Source of the DNA: a virus
Virus genome (UHGV): UHGV-1378516
Direction: 5' to 3' (one strand)
Length of the DNA stretch: 64,000 nt
In this document: piece by piece, positions 3,638-56,621 of the stretch
Layout: each line of letters starts with the position of its first letter
How positions within the stretch are numbered: position 1 is the first letter of the stretch
The notes under the pieces: generated by a model
Database searches by the model: none
What the model was told of the DNA's origin: nothing
The model's input: only the letters and a program-made list of their open reading frames with translations
Translations under genes and position numbers: made by a program

Positions 3638-3940
3638 TTAAGCTCCTACATATTCATATGTGTAAAGGTTTCTTGTACTTGTTGATGCAGTCCCTGTCTC
3701 AGACTTAATGAGGTTCCAGCCATTAGCCACTAAATCTGGTTGCTCAGTTGCATATGAGCGAACTTCACCAACAGTGCCGTTTACTTTATTCAGCAGGTAG
3801 TTGATAATATAGTTGAACCACTGTCTACCCATAGGCTCACCCTTTAAAAGACCTGTCTCTTGAACTTCCGGTGGTGGTAAAACTTTTAACTGATTACCAT
3901 CAGTATCTACTTCGTTTGTAGACCAATTTAGAACTGCCAT
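3638..3940 (-). CDS. hypothetical protein (tail fibre/baseplate associated by position)
   Basis: 100 aa ORF tightly packed between baseplate and fibre genes. Confidence 0.45.
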
Positions 3941-4794
3941 TAAGAATTTCCTTCTTGTTGTGATTTATCTTTTCTGCCTTTGACAATTTGTGCAACCTCA
4001 GCCATAACTCCGTATGCACCACCTGCAATAGCTTCTTTACCAACGATGAAATAACCACTCTTATTAGACCTATCTACAGTCATATAATCATCGCTCTGTA
4101 AGTTTGCTGTTCTGTCAACCTTAAAGTAACCATCAATAACACCAGCATCTGCAAGGCTACCTACTAAGTTGGACTCCAGAGAGCCACCAGTGTTATTTGT
4201 TACCAGACCTCTGTTAGCATCAGTTACAAACCAGTTCTCTTTATCATCAACAATAGCAAGTGATGAATCAGCAACCTCTACAGGTGTCCAAGCGGTCCCA
4301 TTTAAAGTAACATCTCTTAAGATAACAGCGGAACCAGTGGTTGTTGCAGAAATCTTTGACAGTGTATATGCAGCATCAAGAACGCTTTTTCTAGTATTAA
4401 TACGGATAACGATACCACCAGTCTTAGGAGTAATATGCTCAAAAATCTGAGAGAAAGTTGCACCATACAATGTCATAATTGCTTTTTGCAAGAATGTTGG
4501 AGTAGTGTCAGAACGTCTTAAGAAGATTTGGATATAAAGCATAGCTCTATATGTTTCATCATCAGCACCTAAAGGTCTAGGAACTTTAATCAGTGAGCCA
4601 ATATTATCAAGTTGTTGACCTACTGACGTCCTAATATTTCTCTCTGTGTGCATCTGCCAGCAAACATCTTCTAAGGTTTGTAACTCATCAGTGATTGCTT
4701 TCAAGATGCTTGTATAGATAAACTTATCTTTAAACTGTGTTACAGTCCTTTCATCAAGTGTTTTATAATAAACACTATCAATCTTTTCAAACAT
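3940..4794 (-). CDS. putative baseplate protein (gpI/gp48-like by position)
   Basis: 284 aa, directly downstream of baseplate J-like gene; assignment by synteny only. Confidence 0.4.
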
Positions 4795-4796
4795 TA

Positions 4797-6265
4797 TTAC
4801 TCCTTAGTGATGGTATACTGGCTACTTTCCCAAACAGTATATTGGTCACCGTCAACAGTAATTCTTGCTGTAGTATATTGTCCGTCACTAGGTGGAACTG
4901 ATTGGCTGTTTGATAATGCTACTTTCACCTCATTAATCTCAATACCTTTGATTACGTCATAGATGTACCCATAAATTCTGTTAGGGATAACATCATTACC
5001 AACCTTAAGAGTTCTTCCGTAGGCGTTAATACCTTGCACAATACTATCTCTGATATCTTCTTCAGGGATTGTCAAACTTTCTTCGTCATATAATGAGTAA
5101 GACACCTTAACAAATGCGTATTTTGGTGTTGGTCTGCTAAAATAGATATTATGTGCCAGACCACCTAAATCATAGGCTGTACCAAAAATTGAGCCATAAG
5201 CCCTGATACCAGCAGGTTTTGTATCCCAGATTGCTTGAGCAACATTATCATTTTGACCACCAACTACAACAATCTTAAAAGACTTTGGTGGAAGACCTTC
5301 TGAGTTTGTCTCTTCAGTATCATTTTCAACACCTGAAGCATCTGAGACACCTTGAACTCTTTTAACAGCAGCCACAATTGCATCCAAAGTCCCTACACCA
5401 GTAACTGCTAAGGATTCTAAATATCTCTGTCTAAGTTCTGTGTCAGTTTCTTCGTTTCTACCAGTTGTTAAGTCATACCTGTTATAAATACTGTCAAGAC
5501 CATCAACAGTTGTCTCAATCTCAATAAGCGTACCAGCCAAAGCAGGGGTAGCACCAACCTCTTCAGCTACTACATCTGAAATAGTTGTAATCTTTGTAAA
5601 GGGCAGAAACGTTGTTGCAGTGACAACCATAGGGTTTGTTCTTGCAATGATATCACCTTCGTCTTTATAGACTCTTAATGCGGCTCCATCATTAATGACT
5701 TCTGCTTTTGCTACAATACCACCATTAATAGCTTCTGCTAATTTTGTTAGCAGCGTAGTGATTGTGTCTAATGAGGTTGGTTTATATGAGAAAATGACGT
5801 TATCAATAATAATAACATAATCTGCATCAGTTCGTAAAGAGTTAACTTCAAGTGTAGCTTCAACACAATATGATGGAGTAAGGGTAATGTTATTAACTGG
5901 ATAAAAGATGTTTCCGGCAGTACTTCTTAATCTTGTTGTTGAAGGAATGGTAGCACCAGTAGTTCCAGTAAACTCAACTTGACCTCTTGTTGCCTGAGCA
6001 ACATATCTGTATACAGCATTCAAAGCTGTAATATCATCAAGGTTAAATCCTTCAGCCTTGTCAATTGTCCCGCCGTCATAGATTTCTGATAGAATCTCAT
6101 GTGTATCTGCTAAAGACCTTGCAATTGAAGCTAGGAAGAGACCTAATTGACTGTCTTCAGAGACGTCAAGGTTTGGTGAAATATCTCTAAGAAGTCTTGA
6201 TTTGATATTATCAAAAATTTCCTGATATCTTAGAGTTTGTAATCCTGTTGTAGTTAATCCTGCCA

Positions 6266-6266
<1 letters not shown>
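4797..6266 (-). CDS. putative baseplate J-like protein
   Basis: 489 aa, position between wedge-like and gpI-like genes in P2/Mu-type order; synteny-based. Confidence 0.45.
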
Positions 6267-23350: not shown

Positions 23351-23426
23351 TGGAGAATCCGAAGGGACTCGAACCCTTATAAACCTGTTTTGCAGACAGG
23401 CACATAGCCATTTCTGTCACGGATTC
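23351..23426 (-). tRNA. tRNA-Cys (GCA)
   Basis: Hand fold: CCA encoded, T-arm AAGGG-ACTCGAA-CCCTT on plus, 5-bp anticodon stem, loop gives GCA. Confidence 0.7.
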
Positions 23427-23430
23427 AAAT

Positions 23431-23523
23431 TGGAGGAAGATACCAGACTTGAACTGGTACACCGATTTCTCAGCTACTGGCAGTTTAGCAAACTGCTCCC
23501 TTACCTTTTAGGGTTAATCTTCC
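23431..23523 (-). tRNA. tRNA-Ser (GCU), long variable arm
   Basis: 93 nt; T-arm ACCAG-ACTTGAA-CTGGT; perfect anticodon stem GCAGT/ACTGC; matching acceptor. Confidence 0.7.
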
Positions 23524-23525
23524 AT

Positions 23526-24260
23526 TTATTTCTGTAATACGTTCTTCATTTCTGGTGTTGCAATAGTGTCAATTACACCAGTTTTACAAGCATCATCAAA
23601 CCAGTCTGGTAAGATACCTGCTAAGAACCCATTGATATTCGTTTTAAGGTACTCTGCAATAAGAGCAGCTTCTTCTTCAATCATCTGCACAACTTCATCT
23701 GCATAAGCTGTAATTTTTGAAATACCTTCATTAATCTTACTAACAGCTTGGTTAGCTAAATCAGAAATAGTATCAAGACCTTTGTCAATAGCGTCTTGTA
23801 AGTCACTTAATACATCATTAACACCGTCTAGTGCACTGTTAATCGTATCAATAGCTTTTTGACCATACTCTGTAGCAACACCCATAATACCACTAAATGG
23901 TGTACAACCAACTTGTTCACCTGCTGCACCCATAACATTAGAATAGCCTTTTGCTACCTGCATACGTGATGAGAACTCATCAATGGACTTTTGACCGTAA
24001 TCTGTCAGTGTTTTGGTAGTTGATGTAGTGCTTGTCAGACTCGTGGTAAAGCTGTTAAGCAGAACTGTTGTGAGTCCAGCAGCAACAAGCTTATCCTTTA
24101 CTGTAGGGTCTGATACAGAGCTAATAGAGCTTACAAGTGATGTAGAGGCAGCTACGGTTCCGCCGAGAACTGCTGCACCAGTAATAAGGGGGTTAGAAAA
24201 CCCTTTACCAGTTTTTAAGAGATTGAAAATCTCCTTACCTTGTTCTGTCATCTCTTTCAT
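23526..24260 (-). CDS. hypothetical Ser/Thr-rich protein embedded in tRNA array
   Basis: Track ORF 23526..24323 begins with GTG overlapping a tRNA; trimmed to in-frame ATG at 24260. Confidence 0.45.
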   Translation of the reverse strand: MKEMTEQGKEIFNLLKTGKGFSNPLITGAAVLGGTVAASTSLVSSISSVSDPTVKDKLVAAGLTTVLLNSFTTSLTSTTSTTKTLTDYGQKSIDEFSSRMQVAKGYSNVMGAAGEQVGCTPFSGIMGVATEYGQKAIDTINSALDGVNDVLSDLQDAIDKGLDTISDLANQAVSKINEGISKITAYADEVVQMIEEEAALIAEYLKTNINGFLAGILPDWFDDACKTGVIDTIATPEMKNVLQK

Positions 24261-24276
24261 TAAGCACCTTTGAAAT

Positions 24277-24353
24277 TGGTAGTCCAGTGGGATTTGAACC
24301 CTCTTCTCATGTTTTTCAGACACGCGCTTTAACCATATAAGCTACTTGGACTA
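24277..24353 (-). tRNA. tRNA-Phe (GAA), tentative
   Basis: T-loop ATTTGAA; perfect acceptor pairing; anticodon stem has one mismatch. Confidence 0.5.
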
Positions 24354-24358
24354 TAAAT

Positions 24359-24435
24359 TGGGGTGACCTACGGGATTTGAACCCGTATAGACCATGTTCA
24401 CAGCATGGGTCATTACCATTTATGATAAGGCCACA
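24359..24435 (-). tRNA. tRNA-His (GUG)
   Basis: Perfect T-stem ACGGG/CCCGT and anticodon stem CCATG/CATGG; loop gives GUG. Confidence 0.7.
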
Positions 24436-24465
24436 TTTAAGGACTCTCGTAAGAATCCTTAGAAG

Positions 24466-24541
24466 TGGCAGCGGCATAAGGATTTGAACCTTAATAGGAC
24501 AGCTTCAGAGACTGTTGCATTGCCAGTTATGCTATACCGCT
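24466..24541 (-). tRNA. tRNA-Gln (CUG), tentative
   Basis: T-arm TAAGG-ATTTGAA-CCTTA; anticodon loop gives CUG; D-arm GCAT/ATGC. Confidence 0.55.
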
Positions 24542-24546
24542 AAATT

Positions 24547-24618
24547 TGGTACTCCATATCGGATTCGAACCGATACATAACACAGATTTTAAGTCTGGCC
24601 TCTCTGCCAATTGGAGTA
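24547..24618 (-). tRNA. tRNA-like, atypical (short D-arm; anticodon possibly UAA)
   Basis: Clear T-arm ATCGG-ATTCGAA-CCGAT and acceptor pairing but only ~72 nt; anticodon arm ambiguous by eye. Confidence 0.35.
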
Positions 24619-24627
24619 ATGGAGCAT

Positions 24628-24703
24628 TGGCGGGGGATGTTGGAATTGAACCAACTTCTTCGATTTCAAAGACCGAGGTTTTAACCTTGTAAACTAATCC
24701 CCT
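24628..24703 (-). tRNA. tRNA-Gln (UUG), tentative
   Basis: T-arm GTTGG-AATTGAA-CCAAC; anticodon loop gives UUG. Confidence 0.55.
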
Positions 24704-24711
24704 TTAAATCT

Positions 24712-25269
24712 TTACTTTCTTAGTGGATGAATAAAGAATGCCAACATAACTCTTTCCCTTGAGAATGCTCTTTCTTCTGGGACAACGCTTTTAAGTTTCC
24801 ACCCAACATAAATTCTCCAGTAAAATTGTTTACCAAAGATTTTGATTGATGGCACAAAAGCGAATAACCCCCAAGCATTACTGTTCCACATTAGGAGATA
24901 ACCAGTTTGATTATCTTCAGGGTTAGAACTTACGTTGATATTACCTTTCCACTTAGTAACGTCTTTTACATCTCTTCCTAACACATGGTAAGAGAAGTTA
25001 TAAGCTTTGTTTCTCCAGAGCCATCCAACTCTCTGCATGTAGACACCAAGCTTACCAATCTTTCTAATCTTAGCCCATCGTTTGATATGACCTGCATCAC
25101 CATCAATTGGGTTGTCATAAGTCTCCATCCATCTGAACCCGAAAGGCAAGTGTCCTTTCTTCTCACTGTAGAATGGAACTACAAAAGGTGCTAAGATAAC
25201 TGCTAAGATTGCTGCAAATGGCTCTAACAAAGCTAAGAAAATCCATGAAGCATACTTTAAGTATCTCAT
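24712..25269 (-). CDS. hypothetical membrane protein embedded in tRNA array
   Basis: 185 aa, hydrophobic N-terminal segments (..WIFLALLEPFAAILAVILAPFVVPF..). Confidence 0.5.
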   Translation of the reverse strand: MRYLKYASWIFLALLEPFAAILAVILAPFVVPFYSEKKGHLPFGFRWMETYDNPIDGDAGHIKRWAKIRKIGKLGVYMQRVGWLWRNKAYNFSYHVLGRDVKDVTKWKGNINVSSNPEDNQTGYLLMWNSNAWGLFAFVPSIKIFGKQFYWRIYVGWKLKSVVPEERAFSRERVMLAFFIHPLRK

Positions 25270-25508
25270 TGTCTAATCCTCGTAAGGAGGTAAATGTTAT
25301 TATTAGTTTCTAAACCTTCTGGTAAAACTGTCTCAAAAATAACACTCTTCAGATGTCTACCACCAAAACAATCACGTATAAATCTTTCTACTCTAGCGGG
25401 GTCACATAAGTATCCCACTTTTAAGAAAATGTGGTGTTCAACACCAATGACCCTGACAAACTCAATACTCTCACAGTTTTCATGTTCAACTACTGTTAAT
25501 GTTTGCAT
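25266..25508 (-). CDS. hypothetical protein
   Basis: 80 aa, ATG at 25508, stop/start overlap with downstream ORF. Confidence 0.45.
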   Translation of the reverse strand: MQTLTVVEHENCESIEFVRVIGVEHHIFLKVGYLCDPARVERFIRDCFGGRHLKSVIFETVLPEGLETNNNIYLLTRIRQ

Positions 25509-25525
25509 AGTATCACCTTTTTATC

Positions 25526-25601
25526 TGGCGCAGGATAAGGGATTCGAACCCCTATTAACAGCTTCGTAGACTGTTGCTCTTTCCATTTGAACTAATCCTG
25601 C
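25526..25601 (-). tRNA. tRNA-Arg (ACG)
   Basis: T-arm AAGGG-ATTCGAA; anticodon loop gives ACG; perfect acceptor. Confidence 0.65.
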
Positions 25602-25606
25602 AAAAT

Positions 25607-25684
25607 TGGTGTTCCAAGACGGATTCGAACCGTCACTAATACAAGGTTTGAGCTTGCATCCTCTGCCAATTGGGATACTGGAAC
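25607..25684 (-). tRNA. tRNA with anticodon CAA (Leu-type) but short variable arm
   Basis: Perfect T-arm GACGG-ATTCGAA-CCGTC; 5-bp anticodon stem with U33/A37 gives CAA; A73; only ~78 nt. Confidence 0.5.
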
Positions 25685-25685
25685 A

Positions 25686-25760
25686 TGGTACTCACTAAAG
25701 GACTTGAACCTTTTTCTTCATCTTGTAAGGGTGATGTTTTACCATATAAACTAAGCGAGT
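25686..25760 (-). tRNA. tRNA-Val (UAC)
   Basis: T-arm AAAGG-ACTTGAA-CCTTT; anticodon stem TCATC/GGTGA; loop gives UAC. Confidence 0.65.
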
Positions 25761-25856
25761 ATGAAAGAGGTCTGGAGTTGTGCCGCTAACTCAACTCCGT
25801 GGAATTTGTTACGGTCTTCAGTTGACTCAAAGCGGTCTTTCACTTGACCTCTGAAT

Positions 25857-25932
25857 TGGTGCTCCCACAAGGACTCGAACCCTGATAAGTTGCTTACAAG
25901 GCAACCGTAATAACCAATTATACGATAGGAGC
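25857..25932 (-). tRNA. tRNA-Thr (UGU)
   Basis: Perfect anticodon stem GTTGC/GCAAC; loop gives UGU. Confidence 0.7.
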
Positions 25933-25939
25933 ATTAATT

Positions 25940-42680: not shown

Positions 42681-42775
42681 TTTTAGAATCTCCTAGTTTA
42701 AGGACTTTATTTAGTGGGGAAGGTCATTCCCTCCCCGTTGATGTGTAATTTAATCTATCTAAAAAACAGTGTCAA
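42681..42775 (-). promoter_or_regulatory. type-1 promoter/5' stem-loop cassette, copy 4
   Basis: TTGACA-17-TAAATT; same stem-loop and SD; ATG 42680. Confidence 0.65.
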
Positions 42776-42784
42776 CAAAATTTT

Positions 42785-43189
42785 TTAGAGTTCTGCATAA
42801 ATTGCGTCGCAGATGTCACGAAAGTCATGATTTGCCAAATTACGTTGTAACCAAGTGGCAAAGAAATCAGCGATTGCAAAATTTGCGTCATACTCGACAG
42901 ATAGCCACACTTTAACAGCAAATCTAAACATTTTCAAGTCTAACTCTTTATTCATTACCTTAGATTTGCCTAACATGTCGGCCATTTCATATTGTGCGCC
43001 ATCTAGTGTGATACCTGCTGCAACGTCAGCCAATGAACTTTTTACGTTTTCAACGTCTAAGATAACGCTTTGAATCTTTCCGATAATGTTGTGCAATGTT
43101 TCATCAGGCGCTGATGATGTCAGAACATTAATCCGGTTGACGGTCAAACGTGCTTTTAAGATTGATAATTCACGGTTATTAATGGTCAT
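42785..43189 (-). CDS. hypothetical protein (operator-cassette-driven)
   Basis: 134 aa. Confidence 0.55.
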   Translation of the reverse strand: MTINNRELSILKARLTVNRINVLTSSAPDETLHNIIGKIQSVILDVENVKSSLADVAAGITLDGAQYEMADMLGKSKVMNKELDLKMFRFAVKVWLSVEYDANFAIADFFATWLQRNLANHDFRDICDAIYAEL

Positions 43190-43277
43190 TTTAGAATCTC
43201 CAATTTAGGATTGAGTGGTAAAGCTCTTTATCTGGGGCTATCTTATCAGCTTGATAACCCCCTGTAAAGTACTTTAC
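43190..43277 (-). promoter_or_regulatory. type-2 cassette with palindromic operators, copy 1
   Basis: Perfect palindrome GTAAAGTACTTTAC overlapping -35-like TTTACA; second half-site pair TAAAG-ctc-TTTA downstream; SD; ATG 43189. Confidence 0.6.
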
Positions 43278-43546
43278 ACTAAATGCAGTTTTTTACCTTT
43301 TACTATAATGTAACTCGATGCACTATTGCTTTGCACATCCTGATAAATTCTGCGCAAACGGCCTTCGTAGTGTACTTTCCAACTGGTTGGAATCTTTTTA
43401 CCGTATCCCGTAGCAGTTTTTTGGAGTCCTGCGACTTGCCAATCTAAGATATGTTGTTCAGCTTGTAAGTCTTCAAAGTGCATGACACCATCTACATAGT
43501 GACGTAGTGTGACATTTAAAGTGCGACCGTTGTTAGTAGTATACAT
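43274..43546 (-). CDS. hypothetical protein (cassette-driven)
   Basis: 90 aa. Confidence 0.5.
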   Translation of the reverse strand: MYTTNNGRTLNVTLRHYVDGVMHFEDLQAEQHILDWQVAGLQKTATGYGKKIPTSWKVHYEGRLRRIYQDVQSNSASSYIIVKGKKLHLV

Positions 43547-43640
43547 TTTAGAATCTCCTAGTTTAAGGATTTTATTTAGTGGGGAAGGTCATTCCCTCCC
43601 CGTTGATGTGTAATTTAATCTATCTAAAAAACAGTGTCAA
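43547..43640 (-). promoter_or_regulatory. type-1 promoter/5' stem-loop cassette, copy 5
   Basis: Near-identical to copy 4; ATG 43546. Confidence 0.65.
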
Positions 43641-43969
43641 CAGTTTTGTTTTCGTTTGCTCAATTCTTGAACAATTACAGCGTAGTAGTCTTTTAAGTCA
43701 CTGATATTTAAAGCATTTATTAGTGAATTATAATCATCGATTAACTGAAAATCATCTTTGAAAATGTCGCTAATCTGATACGTTCTCGCTTTAAATCTGA
43801 AGCTCATTTCTAACCGCTTTATTTGCTCATCACTGAGACGCCCTAGAAAGCTTTCTACAAGGTTATTGCTAACCTGCTGTGTGATTGCCTTATTTGCTAG
43901 ATTATAGGCTTTATATGCCTTATATAGCGCGAAAATGGCAATGATTGCAGTGATACCAGTCATTAACAT
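43637..43969 (-). CDS. hypothetical membrane-anchored protein
   Basis: 110 aa; N-terminal hydrophobic segment. Confidence 0.5.
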   Translation of the reverse strand: MLMTGITAIIAIFALYKAYKAYNLANKAITQQVSNNLVESFLGRLSDEQIKRLEMSFRFKARTYQISDIFKDDFQLIDDYNSLINALNISDLKDYYAVIVQELSKRKQNC

Positions 43970-44259
43970 GGTGTTTCCTCTTTACGTGATACTTTGCCAT
44001 TTACAGTTATCTCATAGGATTCTAATAAATCGCTTTTAGACTTTACAGGGCTTTTAAAAGTATCATCATAGATATTGACTTGCAATACAGGTTTTTTATA
44101 TTCCCTGCAACTATTCCATAAGCAAATCACTACACGACGGCCTTTGATTTTTCCGTGCAACCATTCCATAACATCATGCCTATTCCTTGATGTTTCAATG
44201 AAATCAATTTTATTAAGTAACTTGCTTAGATTTTCACGGACTTTATTTGATAGTTTCAT
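43963..44259 (-). CDS. hypothetical protein (operator-cassette-driven)
   Basis: 98 aa. Confidence 0.5.
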   Translation of the reverse strand: MKLSNKVRENLSKLLNKIDFIETSRNRHDVMEWLHGKIKGRRVVICLWNSCREYKKPVLQVNIYDDTFKSPVKSKSDLLESYEITVNGKVSRKEETPC

Positions 44260-44348
44260 TTTAGAATCTCCAGTTTAGGATTTAGTTGTAAAGCTCTTTA
44301 TCTGGGGCTTAAGATATCAACTTTTAAACCCCCTGTAAAGTACTTTAT
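44260..44348 (-). promoter_or_regulatory. type-2 cassette with palindromic operators, copy 2
   Basis: GTAAAGTACTTTA palindrome plus TAAAGCTCTTTA element; ATG 44259. Confidence 0.6.
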
Positions 44349-44638
44349 TTGTTAATTTTCAGCTTTGCATAACCTCTCATTGTACGAATTGGAGATGTTA
44401 AGGCTACGCGTCTAATATATGCCTTTTTCGTGTATACATTTGTCTTCCCGATAGTGTTTACACATGTAAAAAGATTTATTGGTGAATTTTTTAACTTCAA
44501 CTGTTTATCAGCCTTCACACCCCATCTTACAGCAGATTGTTTTCCGTTGTCAACCACTTTCCCGCCTAACTTTTTCGCCATGATGCGAGCGTCATCGCGA
44601 GTTTTTGCAGTAATTACAACGTTTTTAATAATAGCCAT
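44345..44638 (-). CDS. hypothetical basic protein (operator-cassette-driven)
   Basis: Track ORF begins with TTG at 44653 inside cassette; trimmed to ATG at 44638 after SD GGAGAA. Confidence 0.5.
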   Translation of the reverse strand: MAIIKNVVITAKTRDDARIMAKKLGGKVVDNGKQSAVRWGVKADKQLKLKNSPINLFTCVNTIGKTNVYTKKAYIRRVALTSPIRTMRGYAKLKINK

Positions 44639-44728
44639 TTTTAAGTTCTCCAATTTAGGATTTAGTGGTAAAGCTCTTTATCTGGGGCTTACTTTATCGA
44701 ACTATAAGCCCCCTGTAAAGTACTTTAT
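44639..44728 (-). promoter_or_regulatory. type-2 cassette with palindromic operators, copy 3
   Basis: Same architecture; ATG 44638. Confidence 0.6.
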
Positions 44729-45105
44729 TTAATTTTGAAGATTGTTACATAACCATCACTCCCGATGATTTGTGATACTCCAGCCTTTTCTACTTGATAG
44801 CCCATATTTTCAAGATGATAAATAGCATCATCATAACCATATGCGCCACCCTGATAACGTCTCTTATCACATCTTATCAGGTTTTTTCCACGTCCAGCAA
44901 GTGCATGGAGAATGGTTTTTTCACTTGAAAGAGTGCCATCTAACATGGTTGCCGTGTAATGGTTGATTTTATTCCCGTTGATATCATACTTGAAATTGAA
45001 CGAGTGAACAACAATCACATTACCTTTGAAATTTTCATCAAGTGACTTCTCCAGTACGCTACGAAAGTTGTCTTTGTTGATGAATTTAGGCGCACGATAT
45101 TTCAT
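44725..45105 (-). CDS. hypothetical protein (first gene of cassette cluster)
   Basis: 126 aa. Confidence 0.55.
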   Translation of the reverse strand: MKYRAPKFINKDNFRSVLEKSLDENFKGNVIVVHSFNFKYDINGNKINHYTATMLDGTLSSEKTILHALAGRGKNLIRCDKRRYQGGAYGYDDAIYHLENMGYQVEKAGVSQIIGSDGYVTIFKIK

Positions 45106-45200
45106 TTTCTGAATCTCCTAGTTTAAGGACTTTATTTAGTGTGGAAGGTCATTCCCTCCCCGTTGATGCAAATACTAGATAACCACGTTCAAAGAGTCAA
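45106..45200 (-). promoter_or_regulatory. type-1 promoter/5' stem-loop cassette, copy 6
   Basis: TTGACT-17-TAGTAT; same stem-loop and SD; ATG 45105. Confidence 0.65.
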
Positions 45201-45319
45201 GAAAAATTTTAAAAATATTTTTGACAAAACTGTAATGAAACGGGCGCACACGACTACCACAAAACAGAACACAAATCAAGAATTATTTTTCAATCCGCTA
45301 CAAATTTTTCCCTTGACTT

Positions 45320-45352
45320 TTGGGGAGAGGGGGAGTAAGAGGGGGAGAGGGG
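45320..45352 (+). other. G-run tract with G-quadruplex potential
   Basis: GGGGAGAGGGGGAGTAAGAGGGGGAGAGGGG: four runs of four or more G in an AT-rich genome. Confidence 0.45.
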
Positions 45353-45379
45353 TTGGTCTGGCTCTCTATAAAAACCTAC

Positions 45380-45556
45380 CTGCACGATTCTAAAATGATT
45401 TTTCTTGCCCGACCTGAGCGGGGTCTGCACGTTTTGAAAATGAAAAATCTCTTTGGAGATTACCTGCACAGTTTGAAAATGAATTTCCTCTTTGGAGTTC
45501 AAAATTTCCTCTACAGATTTCTCTATAGAAATATACCTGCACAATTCTGAAATGAA
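45380..45556. repeat. four direct repeats of a 20-bp motif
   Basis: CTGCAC(G/A)NTT(C/T)T(A/G)AAAATGA at about 45380, 45425, 45464, 45537. Confidence 0.6.
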
Positions 45557-45628
45557 AAAGCCCTCCTTACCTGAAAAATTTACCAGATAAGAAAGGCTTA
45601 GTCTATTGTGAATATCCTACGAAGTTTC

Positions 45629-46414
45629 TTAGTTCTTTGCGTCTAAGAAGGTAACTTCTGGCGAAGAGAAAACTGTCTCAATATCCTCATCAGTTCTTGC
45701 ATAGATGTAAGTGTCTGCATCACTGCCAAATGTTACTGCAATCCTGTGATTGCTCTTCGACAGGTGGGTAACTAGAGCGTTACTTAGAGACATCTTTTCA
45801 ACCGGAGGGTTACTTTGATGTATCTTACCTTTTCTTCGTCTGAAGAGGGTAACTGCATTATCCGTGAACACAACTACACCTGCGAAGTATTCTGGTTCAC
45901 AGTAGTTCTTCCAACCTGAGCGTAACTTGTGGTACATCTCTCCTTCATAGACATATAGATAAACATCTACACTCTTCATTGCCTGATTGATGATAACTGT
46001 GACGGCTTGAGGGTCCAACCCACCGATACCTGCACCAATCATAGGTAAACCAACTTTCTTCAACTGATTAACTTCACAGTATCTGTTAAGCTGTTTCAAA
46101 GATGACTCTAAAGCACTGTATCGGGCATCTTTACCAGTCTTAAGCTGAGTGTAAAGGTTAGCTATACGGCCTTGTTTTACACGTGCTACAGAGAAATTAC
46201 CCAGTAAATTTTCACAGGGTTTGTGTCCTATACCACCTGCATATAGATAAACTTCTGTATCGGTCTCATATGCTTTTGGGTAAAGTTTAGAAATCTTGTC
46301 AGCGATACCTGCACCCATTAAATTCATACAGTTGCAACCGTGACCGATGATGTCAAACTTACCTTTATCAAATGCGGAAAAGATATCACCGTTGATAATT
46401 TTTACAATACCCAT
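45629..46414 (-). CDS. macro domain-containing protein (ADP-ribose binding/processing family) with C-terminal extension
   Basis: 261 aa; N-terminal ..IINGDIF..DIIGHGCNCMNLMGAGIA.. matches macro-domain core in register. Confidence 0.55.
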   Translation of the reverse strand: MGIVKIINGDIFSAFDKGKFDIIGHGCNCMNLMGAGIADKISKLYPKAYETDTEVYLYAGGIGHKPCENLLGNFSVARVKQGRIANLYTQLKTGKDARYSALESSLKQLNRYCEVNQLKKVGLPMIGAGIGGLDPQAVTVIINQAMKSVDVYLYVYEGEMYHKLRSGWKNYCEPEYFAGVVVFTDNAVTLFRRRKGKIHQSNPPVEKMSLSNALVTHLSKSNHRIAVTFGSDADTYIYARTDEDIETVFSSPEVTFLDAKN

Positions 46415-46415
46415 A

Positions 46416-46616
46416 CTAATAATGCTCCCAACGTTGCATGTCTTCGGATGGTTTTACACGGTTACCCTCATGGTCTACATAACCTGCACCACAACCTTCA
46501 CAGATAACTGGCATAGCTGAACCAGCTTCAAACTCTTCTTTGGTGAAGAGACCTTTCAAGTCCCCTGTATCAACACCAAAATGTTCTATTGCACACTTCT
46601 TGCAGAAATCAGCCAT
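46416..46616 (-). CDS. hypothetical Cys-rich (zinc-ribbon-like) small protein
   Basis: 66 aa; CxxC ... CxxC spacing (..CKKC....CEGC..). Confidence 0.45.
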   Translation of the reverse strand: MADFCKKCAIEHFGVDTGDLKGLFTKEEFEAGSAMPVICEGCGAGYVDHEGNRVKPSEDMQRWEHY

Positions 46617-48444: not shown

Positions 48445-49140
48445 TCAATGTTTAACTAACATGGTTTTAATGTGTGGAAGGATTCTGTTTACCTTCTGAA
48501 CATTCTTCTCTGTATCTTCTATAAAGCATACTATATTAAAGTAAGGAAGAATGCAAGACTGAATCATCCTCACTTTCAAACTTTCTGCACTTATAGAGTT
48601 AGTTCCAAAACCACGCATAAAAAGCAAGTAATCATGCTCTATATTGTGCCTTAAAAACATCTCAGTAGGTATTCTCTGAGATTCACCTCTTGCTGTCAAG
48701 AGTCCAACTGCTGCATGATTTGCAATTGCATCAATAATGTTGAAAACATATGTTGGTTTTGCTCTTACAGAATCAAGAAGATTAGTGTACTGTGAGAATG
48801 ACCCATCAGTCAATTCCGTTGAGCAATCTTCGTGATTAAAATTTGTAAGAACACCATCAATATCTGCTAAGATGAGGTTACCTTTTTCTACAAGGTCTTT
48901 ATTGACTATCACTAAACTATCACGCCTTACACCTATAGCTTGTCCAGTCTCTTTGTCCACAACGTTCACAATGGGTTCTGATGTGTGGAACTCTTCAAGT
49001 GAACATACAACCTCTCTTGCAGTGTCTTCAAAATCTCTGCACTGTTCTGGAGTCCATACACAGGAATCAAGACCTAACTCATGAGGATGCAAGTCATAAG
49101 CGTGGCACAGGACTTCATCAGACTTTCTTAATTTTTTCAT
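48445..49140 (-). CDS. HAD-superfamily hydrolase (phosphatase-like)
   Basis: 231 aa; HAD motif I ..LILADIDGVLTNF.. Confidence 0.5.
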   Translation of the reverse strand: MKKLRKSDEVLCHAYDLHPHELGLDSCVWTPEQCRDFEDTAREVVCSLEEFHTSEPIVNVVDKETGQAIGVRRDSLVIVNKDLVEKGNLILADIDGVLTNFNHEDCSTELTDGSFSQYTNLLDSVRAKPTYVFNIIDAIANHAAVGLLTARGESQRIPTEMFLRHNIEHDYLLFMRGFGTNSISAESLKVRMIQSCILPYFNIVCFIEDTEKNVQKVNRILPHIKTMLVKH

Positions 49141-53897: not shown

Positions 53898-55679
53898 TTA
53901 AAGTTGCTTGTCAATATTATTTCGAATATCACCAAGAGTTGTGTAGCCGAACTGCTCAGAGTCGCTAAAGACTAAACGTAAAGCACAAGCTGGATGCTCA
54001 AGTGCATCTGCAAAACTCTGGAATCCATAGCCATCTACAGCTTTCAGGTTCTCACCATCCCACATAGGGGCTACACCACCAAAAGCAGACTTCTTAATAC
54101 CACTGTCTGTTTTAGGGTCTTTTGCAAGCATAATCTCTTTACCACCAATACTTGCAAGAGTTGCTTTGACAGCAAATGCAAAGGTGTCACGAGTCATGTA
54201 CTGGTAAGTGTAAGAACCTACACCAAACACTACGTTAGAGCTTGCAAAACCCATTTCATACAAACGCTTCAGGATTTCGTTTGCACGTTCCAACGTGATA
54301 GAGTCACCATAGATAAGGCCAATGTGCTCATCCAGTACCTTAAACCCTTTAGAGTTGATAGTTCCTCCAAAGATGTTATACAGTGTCTTGATAGCTCCAT
54401 CAATCTCCGCTACAGGACGTGTTACAACGTTTGCAGAACCAACCATATAAGCATTTTTCAACATCACTGTATCAGCAACTTCAAAGTCTTCTCTGTCAAC
54501 AACCATTTCGTAACCTTCTGACAGTAGCCATCCAGCAATACCATAATTGATGTTTTCAAGCTTCATGTTCAGAACAGCATTCAGCATTGTGTCGCTGGCT
54601 TCCAGCTTACTTAGGTGTTCGTAATAAGCCTTTTTAGCACACTCTAAATGGATTGCTTTGTATCCTGTGACAATATGTACAGGGTCTCCAGAATCAGGAC
54701 GAATTACCAGTTTGCCATCACGTTCCATAATCTCTTTACGGAGTTCTGGCAATATGACTGATACAGTTCTCCAGAAGTTATAAGTATCTGAAACAACACT
54801 TGCAATACCAGTTGGGTAAGTTTCTGTTAAGAAACGACGGAAGGTTTGTAACTCACCTTTAAAGCGTCTTTCTTCTTCAATCAACTCGTTACCACCTTCC
54901 CAAGCAATGTTTGCACACATTACAGAATGTTCAGTGGCTGGTACAGAACTACCAATATCAGAGATTTGGTAGGACTGTCCATAGATGCGTTTAGCTGTAT
55001 ACACAGCAGGGAAGCTATCAGTCCCTTTAAAGCTTGTTAAGTGACCTACAGCGTTAAATGCGTCATCAGTAAAGCCGGACATACCACGCATAGCAAAATC
55101 ATGGCACTGATAAGGTAAATGTAAGTCATTGTCACAAGTAAGGTCAGCCCACTTCTTACAGATGCGTTTGTAATGCAATGCAATAGTTGCAATGGTGCAA
55201 GCCTTCCAAATTTCAGCAGAGAAAGCATCTTCCAGATAACCTGCTACCCAATGAAAACCTGAAACAGTGTTCTGAAAGACAATCATCGGGACACGCATTG
55301 GAACAACTGTGCCTTCTTCTACAGCGTATACTTCAACTGGTAGATAACCTAAGTCGTGAAGTGCTTCCCAATGCTCTCGACCGATAGCATCTTTACCCAG
55401 AACACCATTCATGACTTCTAAGATTTCATCAATGGCTTCTTTTTTATCACGTTCAAAGAAAGTGGCATTCCAGTGGTCTATCAAGTAATCTTTAACAAAA
55501 CGTTGAATACCAAAAGCCACTACACCGTCAATTGCTAAAGGGCTGTTAAACCATTTATCACTACGTGGTGTTAGGTTGAACATCAAGTACTCTGTTGCGC
55601 TAGGATACTGGTAAACATGACCAGATTTGTAAGCATCTGCATTTAAACCTGCTGGTACTGCATAAAGTGATTTAGTCAT
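53898..55679 (-). CDS. nicotinamide phosphoribosyltransferase-family enzyme (NadV/NAMPT-like; possibly Namat-type)
   Basis: 593 aa; N-terminal ..YKSGHVYQYP.. and overall size/organisation of NAMPT family; adjacent to PRPP-synthetase-like gene. Confidence 0.65.
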   Translation of the reverse strand: MTKSLYAVPAGLNADAYKSGHVYQYPSATEYLMFNLTPRSDKWFNSPLAIDGVVAFGIQRFVKDYLIDHWNATFFERDKKEAIDEILEVMNGVLGKDAIGREHWEALHDLGYLPVEVYAVEEGTVVPMRVPMIVFQNTVSGFHWVAGYLEDAFSAEIWKACTIATIALHYKRICKKWADLTCDNDLHLPYQCHDFAMRGMSGFTDDAFNAVGHLTSFKGTDSFPAVYTAKRIYGQSYQISDIGSSVPATEHSVMCANIAWEGGNELIEEERRFKGELQTFRRFLTETYPTGIASVVSDTYNFWRTVSVILPELRKEIMERDGKLVIRPDSGDPVHIVTGYKAIHLECAKKAYYEHLSKLEASDTMLNAVLNMKLENINYGIAGWLLSEGYEMVVDREDFEVADTVMLKNAYMVGSANVVTRPVAEIDGAIKTLYNIFGGTINSKGFKVLDEHIGLIYGDSITLERANEILKRLYEMGFASSNVVFGVGSYTYQYMTRDTFAFAVKATLASIGGKEIMLAKDPKTDSGIKKSAFGGVAPMWDGENLKAVDGYGFQSFADALEHPACALRLVFSDSEQFGYTTLGDIRNNIDKQL

Positions 55680-55724
55680 CTTTTAATCTCTCTCAAAATG
55701 GGGCTTGGAAGCCCCTATAAAGTT

Positions 55725-56621
55725 TTAATCAAGGTTTGCTACAGTAACTTGGCTATAATGTGTTAAGCCACGGTCTTTAGCTTCCCCTAAAGAGTTTGTA
55801 GTGTAGATATGGTCAATGCCATTGTCAAGCAAGTTTTCAACATCTTTAGAGAAGATACCATGTGTTACATAGAGTTCCACACGTTTTGCACCTGCTTCAC
55901 GAAGATGCTTAGCTGCTTCTATGAAGGTTCGACCACCATCACAGATATCATCCAGAATCATGACGGTTTTATCTGTCAAATCAACATCATCAAGGATTCG
56001 CATACCAGTAATTTCACCAGTCTTAAGGTTACGCACCTTAGACATTGTGATATATGGTTTATCCACCTCTTTAGCGGTCTCTGCAACCTTCTTAGCAGCA
56101 CCTGCATCTGGGGCTACTAAGTAATCAACCAGTGGGTCATTTGCATAGTGGACTGCAATTTCCTTTTGAGGAATACTCTGGAAGCAGTTAAACAGGTTAT
56201 CTGGAACGTAACTGTGAGGGTCAACTGCACAGACTGCACCAAATCCCATTGCATTTACCTGTTTAGCAAAAACCTTCAAAGCTGCTGCGTCGCCTTTAAA
56301 CATGTGACGGTCATAACGTGCATTTGGTAAGTAGTAAAAGATGACAGTCTTTAAAGCATAATCATGAGGAATTAAATCATCAATTGCTTCTTTAGCAAGT
56401 GCCACAGCAAACAATGTATCCTTATCATAACCTTTTACAATCATAATCACATTGTTTATGGATGATGCTGCATAAGCAGTGAAATCAACAAACTCTGGCG
56501 AAAAGTGTCCACCAATCTCACCAGAAGGAAATTGGATGATGTTAAACTCCTCTTCATGAGTTCCTTTAGTTGGTGAATGAACTGTAACACGGATAGATGT
56601 TTTCATAGTTTTCTCTCTCAA
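55725..56621 (-). CDS. ribose-phosphate pyrophosphokinase-family enzyme (Prs-like; possibly Adps-type)
   Basis: 298 aa; PRPP-binding-loop-like ..VMILDDICDGGRT..; first ATG may be at Met6. Confidence 0.65.
   Translation of the reverse strand: MREKTMKTSIRVTVHSPTKGTHEEEFNIIQFPSGEIGGHFSPEFVDFTAYAASSINNVIMIVKGYDKDTLFAVALAKEAIDDLIPHDYALKTVIFYYLPNARYDRHMFKGDAAALKVFAKQVNAMGFGAVCAVDPHSYVPDNLFNCFQSIPQKEIAVHYANDPLVDYLVAPDAGAAKKVAETAKEVDKPYITMSKVRNLKTGEITGMRILDDVDLTDKTVMILDDICDGGRTFIEAAKHLREAGAKRVELYVTHGIFSKDVENLLDNGIDHIYTTNSLGEAKDRGLTHYSQVTVANLD

Follow-up and report, generated by a model that had tools for sequence, protein, structure and literature searches.

A two-domain macrodomain protein of the DarG/TARG1/Poa1p class in a Felix O1-like phage, a candidate AdfM-type counter-defence enzyme

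A two-domain macrodomain protein

In the virus genome UHGV-1378516, analysed here over a window of 64,000 nucleotides (the whole stretch of DNA under study), a minus-strand gene at 45629-46414 encodes a macrodomain protein of 261 amino acids (aa), hereafter the phage protein. The source phage is a Felixounavirus (Felix O1-like myovirus, Ounavirinae), and the protein is a further example of a kind already described, the Gln-type macrodomain counter-defence enzymes of the DarG/TARG1/Poa1p class, whose homologues were characterised in 2025-2026. Our favoured but tentative reading, to which we give slightly less than an even chance, is that of an orphan, antitoxin-like enzyme of the T4 Tk.4/AdfM type, which would remove from phage DNA the ADP-ribose attached by DarT2. 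The gene and its two domains are laid out as follows.

45629..46414, minus strand: macro gene, complete coding sequence in the open reading frame (ORF) listing, ATG start, 261 aa plus stop codon at 45629-45631; two-domain macro protein
45944..46414, minus strand: macro domain, aa 1-157, DarG/TARG1/Poa1p (ALC1-like) class, from Pfam, NCBIfam, PADLOC, the PDB profile search, and AlphaFold2 with Foldseek
45632..45943, minus strand: linker helix (aa 158-167), then C-terminal mostly-beta domain (aa ~170-261) with six strands and one helix

The 261-aa translation has MGIVKIINGDIFSAFDKGKFDIIGHGCNCMNLMGAGIA at its N-terminus, in agreement with the string given in the original prediction. Pfam PF01661 (Macro) matched aa 25-141 and covered profile positions 2-117 of 118; the score of 32 bits (E=1.3e-7) exceeds the gathering score, which is 22. 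A family profile built from 27 homologues was compared with the PDB sequences and retrieved TARG1 (4e-17), Mycobacterium tuberculosis DarG (2e-16), SCO6735 (4.7e-15), yeast Poa1p (2e-14) and Thermus aquaticus DarG (2e-13), while MacroD-type and viral macro domains scored far worse. Among curated models, the best were those of DarG (NCBIfam NF048014, E=4.7e-13; PADLOC DarG, E=1.1e-13), both matching the macro part only. The AlphaFold2 model of the full protein reached a predicted local distance difference test score (pLDDT) of 90.6 and a predicted template modelling score (pTM) of 0.89. Its comparison with the PDB using Foldseek yielded 242 matches at E<=1e-3, of which the top 50 all had the macro fold; TARG1, both DarG macrodomains and Poa1p took the top ranks with target-normalised TM scores of 0.75-0.85 (0.79-0.85 for TARG1 and DarG).

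Based on these results, the N-terminal domain is confirmed as a macro domain of the DarG/TARG1/Poa1p class, an assignment far beyond chance, and the predicted structure has the three-layer alpha/beta/alpha macro fold. The original prediction, made from the sequence alone, had placed a macro-domain protein at these coordinates and had named placement outside the macro fold as the outcome that would overturn it; profile and structure comparison both confirmed the fold. Its reading of the motifs was likewise right in register: the residues G9-D10-I11 are there, the conserved macro Asn (the NAAN equivalent) is N28 within HGCNC, and the glycine-rich loops are MGAGIA (33-38) and IGAGIGG (126-132), which together with N28 are invariant or nearly so among the 27 homologues. 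From the fold and these loops, the macro domain would be predicted to bind ADP-ribose.

A predicted active site of the SCO6735 type

The family-invariant residues comprise H25, G26, N28, C29, M33, G36, A38, N86, L87, T89, Q90, P124, G127 and G129. In the HMMER alignment, TARG1 K84 corresponds to Q90 and TARG1 D125 to G131, so that both the TARG1 dyad and the DarG lysine are absent. A Gln at this position is known from SCO6735, in which Gln85 stands at the position of TARG1 K84 and DarG K80 and its mutation abolishes activity (PMC9411070). In that enzyme Asn27 locks Gln85, with His24 next to it and Gly128 in the diphosphate loop (PMC9411070); it strips ADP-ribose from thymidine in DNA efficiently and neutralises DarT (PMC9411070). 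The phage protein matches the SCO6735-type set with Q90, N28, H25 and G127/G129/G131, the equivalence of Q90 and SCO6735 Q85 being derived from the alignment of both to TARG1 K84 rather than from a direct alignment. Judged from these residues, it appears to be a Gln-type macrodomain with a SCO6735-like active site.

In two homologues, Erwinia phage M7 gp101 (L007 1498-2280) and KVP40.0092 (L008 2998-3510), Gln replaces the otherwise invariant His25 (GQGCNC), and thus the His is not strictly required in the family. This agrees with the SCO6735 study, which attributed the activity loss of the H24Y variant to misfolding.

Two characterised phage homologues with different functions

Judged by sequence, T4 Tk.4 is the closest characterised homologue, with 35% identity over all of its 155 aa (BLASTP E=5e-24; hhalign probability 100%, E=1.3e-41) and the motifs HGCNC, NLYTQ and IGAGIG in common with the phage protein. 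Both a transposon screen and a clean knockout revealed that tk.4 is needed for T4 growth on DarTG2-expressing cells, and the product was accordingly named AdfM, for anti-DarT factor Macrodomain (bioRxiv 10.1101/2025.11.20.689424). In vitro removal of DarT2 marks is documented for a separate macro AdfM, of the Lys type, from chimalliviruses (PMC13309987). The suggestion in the original prediction that the protein could reverse an ADP-ribosylation-based defence therefore has a precedent in a homologue at 35% identity.

The second characterised homologue, Adpp of Vibrio phage Gary, is 27% identical to the phage protein (E=2e-13). Adpp dephosphorylates ADP-ribose-1''-phosphate (ADPR-1''-phosphate), the product of the RES-domain defence aRES, after which NARP1 rebuilds NAD+ (bioRxiv 10.64898/2026.01.28.702374); it is required to overcome aRES (bioRxiv 10.64898/2026.01.28.702374). 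Since the AdfM and Adpp reactions would both break a bond at C1'' of the distal ribose, it is conceivable that a single enzyme performs the two. Another member of the family, metagenomic P0027 (339 aa), occurs as a fusion with cREC_REC (PF20274, "cyclic-phosphate processing receiver domain"), which hints that some members process ADP-ribose 1''-2'' cyclic phosphate or 1''-phosphate.

A neighbour-joining tree placed the Ounavirinae clade apart from both the Tk.4 and the Adpp clades, and since it had no bootstrap support we did not rely on it. Two conceivable discriminators were also set aside. The YTQ motif as opposed to YGQ was rejected because NARP1-adjacent macros of Acinetobacter and Aeromonas phages have YTQ as well, and the best PDB relatives proved uninformative, Adpp pointing to TARG1 and SCO6735 and Tk.4 to BT1257 and Poa1p. 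Sequence cannot separate the AdfM from the Adpp role.

A NARP1-type gene pair at a distance from the macro gene

The phage further encodes clear homologues of the verified Adps and Namat proteins of phage Gary and thus carries a NARP1-type pair:

55725..56621, minus strand: Prs-like protein, Adps homologue (Pfam PF00156, PF14572; 38% identity, E=8e-37 to Gary Adps)
53898..55679, minus strand: NAMPT-like protein, Namat homologue (Pfam PF04095, PF18127; 37% identity over the full length, E=2e-105 to Gary Namat)

The original prediction had assigned the macro gene to the same region as a NAMPT/Prs-like pair. The pair is real and on the same strand (53898-56621), but it is not adjacent, lying 7.5 kb upstream of the macro gene. 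A NAMPT/Prs pair at 3940-6266 was considered and rejected, as the genes there are baseplate genes. The proposed link to NAD/ADP-ribose metabolism gains a precedent from the homology of the pair to Adps/Namat and of the macro protein to Adpp, which feeds NARP1. By the same homology, Felix O1-like phages would seem to regenerate NAD+ using ADP-ribose and nicotinamide, not by classical NAMPT/phosphoribosyl pyrophosphate (PRPP) salvage.

Between the pair and the macro gene are rIIA, rIIB and about ten further genes, including an SLT-like gene, a polynucleotide kinase (PNK)-like gene and small ORFs. Three distant two-domain homologues on metagenomic contigs (32-40% identity) show the same order, Adps-Namat-rIIA-rIIB-...-macro, and are never adjacent to the pair; in the four genomes examined, macro gene and Namat are separated by 7.5-10 kb and >10 genes. 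In the published NARP1-AP set, the macro gene lies within two genes of the pair, and the set contains no Escherichia or Salmonella phage (bioRxiv 10.64898/2026.01.28.702374). The macro gene described here falls outside this two-gene distance.

The PNK-like gene is a 231-aa ORF (48445-49140, minus strand) that is named "polynucleotide kinase" in phage Pr103Blw; it had no Pfam match at E<=0.01, and its counterparts in related contigs gave weak HAD_PNKP matches. In KVP40, pseT is located two genes upstream of the macro gene, and an RNA ligase gene is found near that of GAP31. The macro family may be loosely associated with RNA-repair genes.

The loop following the catalytic-position Gln

We compared the loop directly after the Gln, using as a criterion of our own, not a published one, the presence of an aromatic insertion. 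The loop is short in the phage protein (QLKTGKD), in its relatives and in T4 AdfM (QFQPGPN). In 10/10 distinct NARP1-adjacent macros aligned, the Gln is immediately followed by an insertion of 2-7 residues rich in aromatics (e.g. QYNYG..., QYHWHAHK..., QYDYRRAYG..., QKYYGYD..., QYTFWD...). It is also present in all six motif classes of the ~123 NARP1-adjacent table entries:

Motif classes of NARP1-adjacent macros: LYGQ 75, VYGQ 30, AYTQ 11, LHAQ 4, LYTQ 2, LHSQ 1

Six further macros that are not NARP1-adjacent were sampled for loop length. Here, the loop is short in the Vi1-like and Rhodococcus phages, two residues longer in KVP40 and ZZ1, and long in the remaining two. Among the macros sampled, a short loop was not seen beside NARP1, while a long loop is not exclusive to NARP1. 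The short loop, a weak indication, and the non-adjacent position would together lean towards AdfM.

Weighing the possible functions

According to the AdfM-type reading, the gene product would be an active macrodomain enzyme of the DarG/TARG1/Poa1p class, an ADP-ribose C1''-hydrolase, presumably expressed from the promoter-rich block of small genes that lies close to the end of the genome. The two Gly-rich loops would bind the ADP-ribose moiety and Gln90, held by Asn28, would position the distal ribose as in SCO6735, allowing hydrolysis of the bond at C1''. The likeliest substrate would be ADP-ribose on thymidine of phage single-stranded DNA, placed there by host DarT2; once it is removed, replication would resume in Escherichia and Salmonella hosts that carry DarTG2. 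The C-terminal domain, an appendage specific to the lineage and quick to evolve, would pack against the macro domain and possibly target a substrate or partner. For the phage protein itself, the macro fold, the class, the conservation of the active site and the homology to AdfM are established, and from these we infer catalytic activity, the DNA substrate and DarTG2 as the target.

Several observations weigh against this reading. The catalytic Lys of DarG (Taq K80) is replaced by the invariant Gln90, and the DarG model NF048014 was matched with only 49.1 bits, below its equivalog cut-off of 250, over positions 4-153 of 338. The evidence for T4 AdfM is genetic, removal of ADP-ribose from DNA having been inferred and not measured (bioRxiv 10.1101/2025.11.20.689424), and literature searches turned up no experimental study of the Felix O1 macro protein or of any Ounavirinae orthologue. 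T4 AdfM and Gary Adpp share 35% identity, equal to that between the phage protein and T4 AdfM, so both published functions lie within one sequence family, to which the uninformative PDB relatives mentioned above add no distinction. The loop is a partial signature, the two long loops among the six sampled macros belonging to rV5-like GAP31 and jumbo phage E9.1, both without adjacent NARP1. Finally, the genome encodes both Adps and Namat, as NARP1-AP requires of a genome, which makes an Adpp-like role plausible.

In such an Adpp-like role, the protein would convert the NAD+-phosphorolysis product of aRES to ADP-ribose, from which the phage Adps and Namat rebuild NAD+, corresponding to NARP1-AP with an unlinked third gene. 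We regard this as possible, if rather unlikely; it need not exclude an AdfM-like role. Besides the gene pair, it is favoured by homology to an enzyme with ADPR-1''-phosphate phosphatase activity in vitro that is needed against aRES, by the HxCNC (also in yeast Poa1p) and Gln-containing motifs common to both proteins, by the description of aRES systems from E. coli, Klebsiella and Enterobacter, and by the legacy annotation as "phosphatase". In each of the lineages examined, the two-domain macro gene also shares a syntenic block with Adps/Namat; this co-occurrence is complete but falls within one syntenic lineage and is thus not independent evidence. Against it stand the distance of the macro gene from Namat, compared with the published association within two genes and its lack of Escherichia and Salmonella phages, and the loop without the aromatic insertion of the NARP1-adjacent classes. 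The phage protein is, moreover, closer to Tk.4, and T4 has no NARP1; a small-molecule phosphatase also offers no obvious reason for a fast-evolving extra domain.

An improbable option is another ADP-ribose-linked target, such as protein or RNA ADP-ribosylation, 1''-linked signals (Thoeris gcADPR), O-acetyl-ADP-ribose, or a function as a sponge. The class is promiscuous, TARG1 acting on proteins and O-acetyl-ADP-ribose and SCO6735 on DNA and protein; some deposited annotations read "O-acetyl-ADP-ribose deacetylase", and the breadth of the family (2866/50697 phage records, ~6%, in many unrelated phage groups) would fit a general function. On the other hand, a role of this kind was not found for any homologue, the two characterised ones from phages acting on DarT2- or aRES-type products, and the strict conservation of N28 and Q90 argues against a pure binder. 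The neighbourhood contains no pointer to Thoeris or to a phage ADP-ribosyltransferase, and no evidence was found for the suggestion of Thoeris in the original prediction.

An orphan, fast-evolving C-terminal domain

The C-terminal extension, originally estimated at ~110 aa, measures ~95-105 aa (aa ~158-261); in it, the linker helix leads into six beta-strands and one helix. Its pLDDT was 85-94 as part of the full-length model and 79.5 in a model of the domain alone. A structure search of BFVD with this domain retrieved only its own orthologue from phage SUSP2, and tblastn found it in Ounavirinae only (243 records). A hidden Markov model (HMM) of the domain, searched against 1.84 billion representative proteins, matched only macro fusions, truncated gene calls and spurious repeats. 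Two apparent stand-alone C-terminal domains were truncated gene calls, and four multi-stretch matches in repetitive proteins (a retrotransposon concatemer, YDG/MBG repeats and a PQQ propeller) were judged spurious. In another Ounavirinae genus, Erwinia phage M7 gp101 is a two-domain protein of 260 aa with a very divergent C-terminal part. The domain is an orphan without detectable fold or sequence relatives, restricted to the macro fusion in Ounavirinae-like phages, and it has no homology to the domain with which DarG binds DarT.

Identity to the phage protein is 46-54% in the C-terminal domain vs 76-80% in the macro domain for close relatives, and 17-25% vs 40-52% for distant ones; the C-terminal domain evolves at roughly double the rate of the macro domain. 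Since the net charge among homologues varies from -5 to +4, a conserved surface for DNA binding or DNA mimicry was rejected. One might speculate that the fast divergence would fit a protein-protein interface. A phage protein that binds DarT stoichiometrically is known in AdfB of ICP1 (PMC11481870). It is conceivable, at long odds, that the two-domain protein is an independently assembled analogue of DarG2, in which the macro domain erases the DNA mark and the C-terminal domain blocks DarT2 or another defence protein, comparable to the stand-alone ICP1 AdfB, or else that it is one enzyme for DNA and ADPR-1''-phosphate, tethered by its C-terminal domain to Adps/Namat or DNA.

Gene, locus and conservation

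The locus was matched by 229 phage records at 80-99% DNA identity, and the macro gene is intact in 202/203 phage records matching by megablast. It is conserved in Felix O1-like phages and already annotated in >200 genomes, the deposited names in relatives being "putative phosphatase", "macro domain-containing protein" or "O-acetyl-ADP-ribose deacetylase". PHROG 335 ("phosphatase") was matched over the full length (E=7e-113). In the homologous region of phage Pr103Blw (L001), small ORFs carry the implausible automated names "tail sheath monomer" (98 aa), "tail assembly protein" (108 aa) and "prohead assembly scaffold protein" (67 aa), which are probably annotation errors. The window also contains a cluster of 26 tRNA genes (23351-28562, minus strand) for most of the amino acids, as one would expect of a Felix O1-like phage. 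The following elements flank the macro gene or recur in its vicinity:

46425..46429, minus strand: Shine-Dalgarno-like GGGAG, 10 nt upstream of the ATG, read from the sequence
45558..45599, minus strand: terminator-like hairpin and T-run, 30 nt past the stop codon, from a consensus scan (pattern match only)
42681-42786, 43546-43651 and 45106-45211: repeat D1, 106 nt, three copies 76-95% alike
43189-43280, 44259-44350 and 44639-44730: repeat D2, 92 nt, three copies

The macro gene appears to close its own transcription unit. Its ATG lies 1 nt past the TAG stop (46416-46418) of an upstream 66-aa ORF (46416-46616, minus strand), to which it is apparently translationally coupled. Two Cys pairs (CKKC ... 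CEGC) suggest that this ORF encodes a small zinc-ribbon protein; it has no Pfam match, and its position is kept in distant relatives (ORFs of 63-66 aa in L005 and L006).

Downstream of the macro gene, a non-coding spacer of ~520 bp (45106-45628) contains three 34-nt direct repeats at 45425-45570 and a C/T-rich tract on the minus strand (ccctctccccctcttactccccctctcccc). An Rfam scan of the spacer gave no match at E<=1. Its length varies by ~300-500 bp in some related phages, as seen from megablast matches split in two. Repeated modules occupy the intergenic regions between the small minus-strand genes. The D1 copy at 45106-45211 holds a promoter-like site (TTGACT-N17-TAGTAT) and the ribosome-binding site of the next gene, and D1 and D2 look like reused cassettes of promoter/5' untranslated region and terminator, one per small gene.

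Relevance for Felix O1-like phages

Felix O1-like phages are widely used for typing, biocontrol and therapy of Salmonella and E. coli, so that their counter-defence repertoire affects host range, and the macro gene is a concrete candidate for resistance to DarTG2 and/or aRES in Felixounavirus. For the family, which about 6% of sequenced phage genomes contain, experiments now support two different functions, and a phage with both NARP1 and a macro gene unlinked to it lends itself to asking whether one enzyme does both jobs. The orphan C-terminal domain is small and well defined, and its rapid evolution would fit a protein-protein interface shaped by an arms race.

Comparison with known systems

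Comparing the phage protein to known systems, T4 Tk.4 shares with it the Gln at the DarG/TARG1 Lys position and an equally short loop thereafter. Like the phage macro gene, tk.4 is an orphan gene that lies among small non-structural genes in a virulent myovirus of enterobacteria. Tk.4 is, however, a single domain of 155 aa, whereas the phage protein has an extra C-terminal domain of ~95 aa; T4 lacks the NARP1 that is present in the phage studied here, and the anti-DarTG2 phenotype was shown for T4 only. Gary Adpp has the HxCNC motif and the Gln at the catalytic-loop position in common with the phage protein, and both phages encode Adps and Namat. Its gene lies between Adps and Namat, in contrast to the 7.5 kb separating the phage macro gene from the pair, and the protein is a single domain of 158 aa with a 7-residue aromatic insertion after the Gln and YGQ in place of YTQ.

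Chimallivirus AdfM (PhiKZ gp104) is likewise an orphan DarG-like phage macro protein that counters DarTG2, and its removal of ADP-ribose from DNA has been demonstrated (PMC13309987). It differs in being Lys-type (N23/K78), in belonging to another branch of the class and in being imported into the phage nucleus (PMC13309987). DarG2 of T. aquaticus and M. tuberculosis (PDB 5M31, 5M3E, 5M3I) has the same layout of an N-terminal macro domain and a second, C-terminal domain, but with Lys80 and a DarT-binding domain, whereas the phage protein has a Gln, a non-homologous C-terminal domain and no adjacent darT.

SCO6735 of Streptomyces coelicolor (PDB 5E3B) is, like the phage protein, an ALC1-like, stand-alone DarG-like macrodomain with Gln for Lys and without an adjacent DarT. 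It is distantly related, encoded by a bacterial chromosomal gene and single-domain. Human TARG1/OARD1 and yeast Poa1p are the top PDB matches in both sequence and structure, and HxCNC is common to Poa1p and the phage protein; these are eukaryotic housekeeping enzymes, and the TARG1 dyad K84/D125 contrasts with Q90/G131 in the phage protein.

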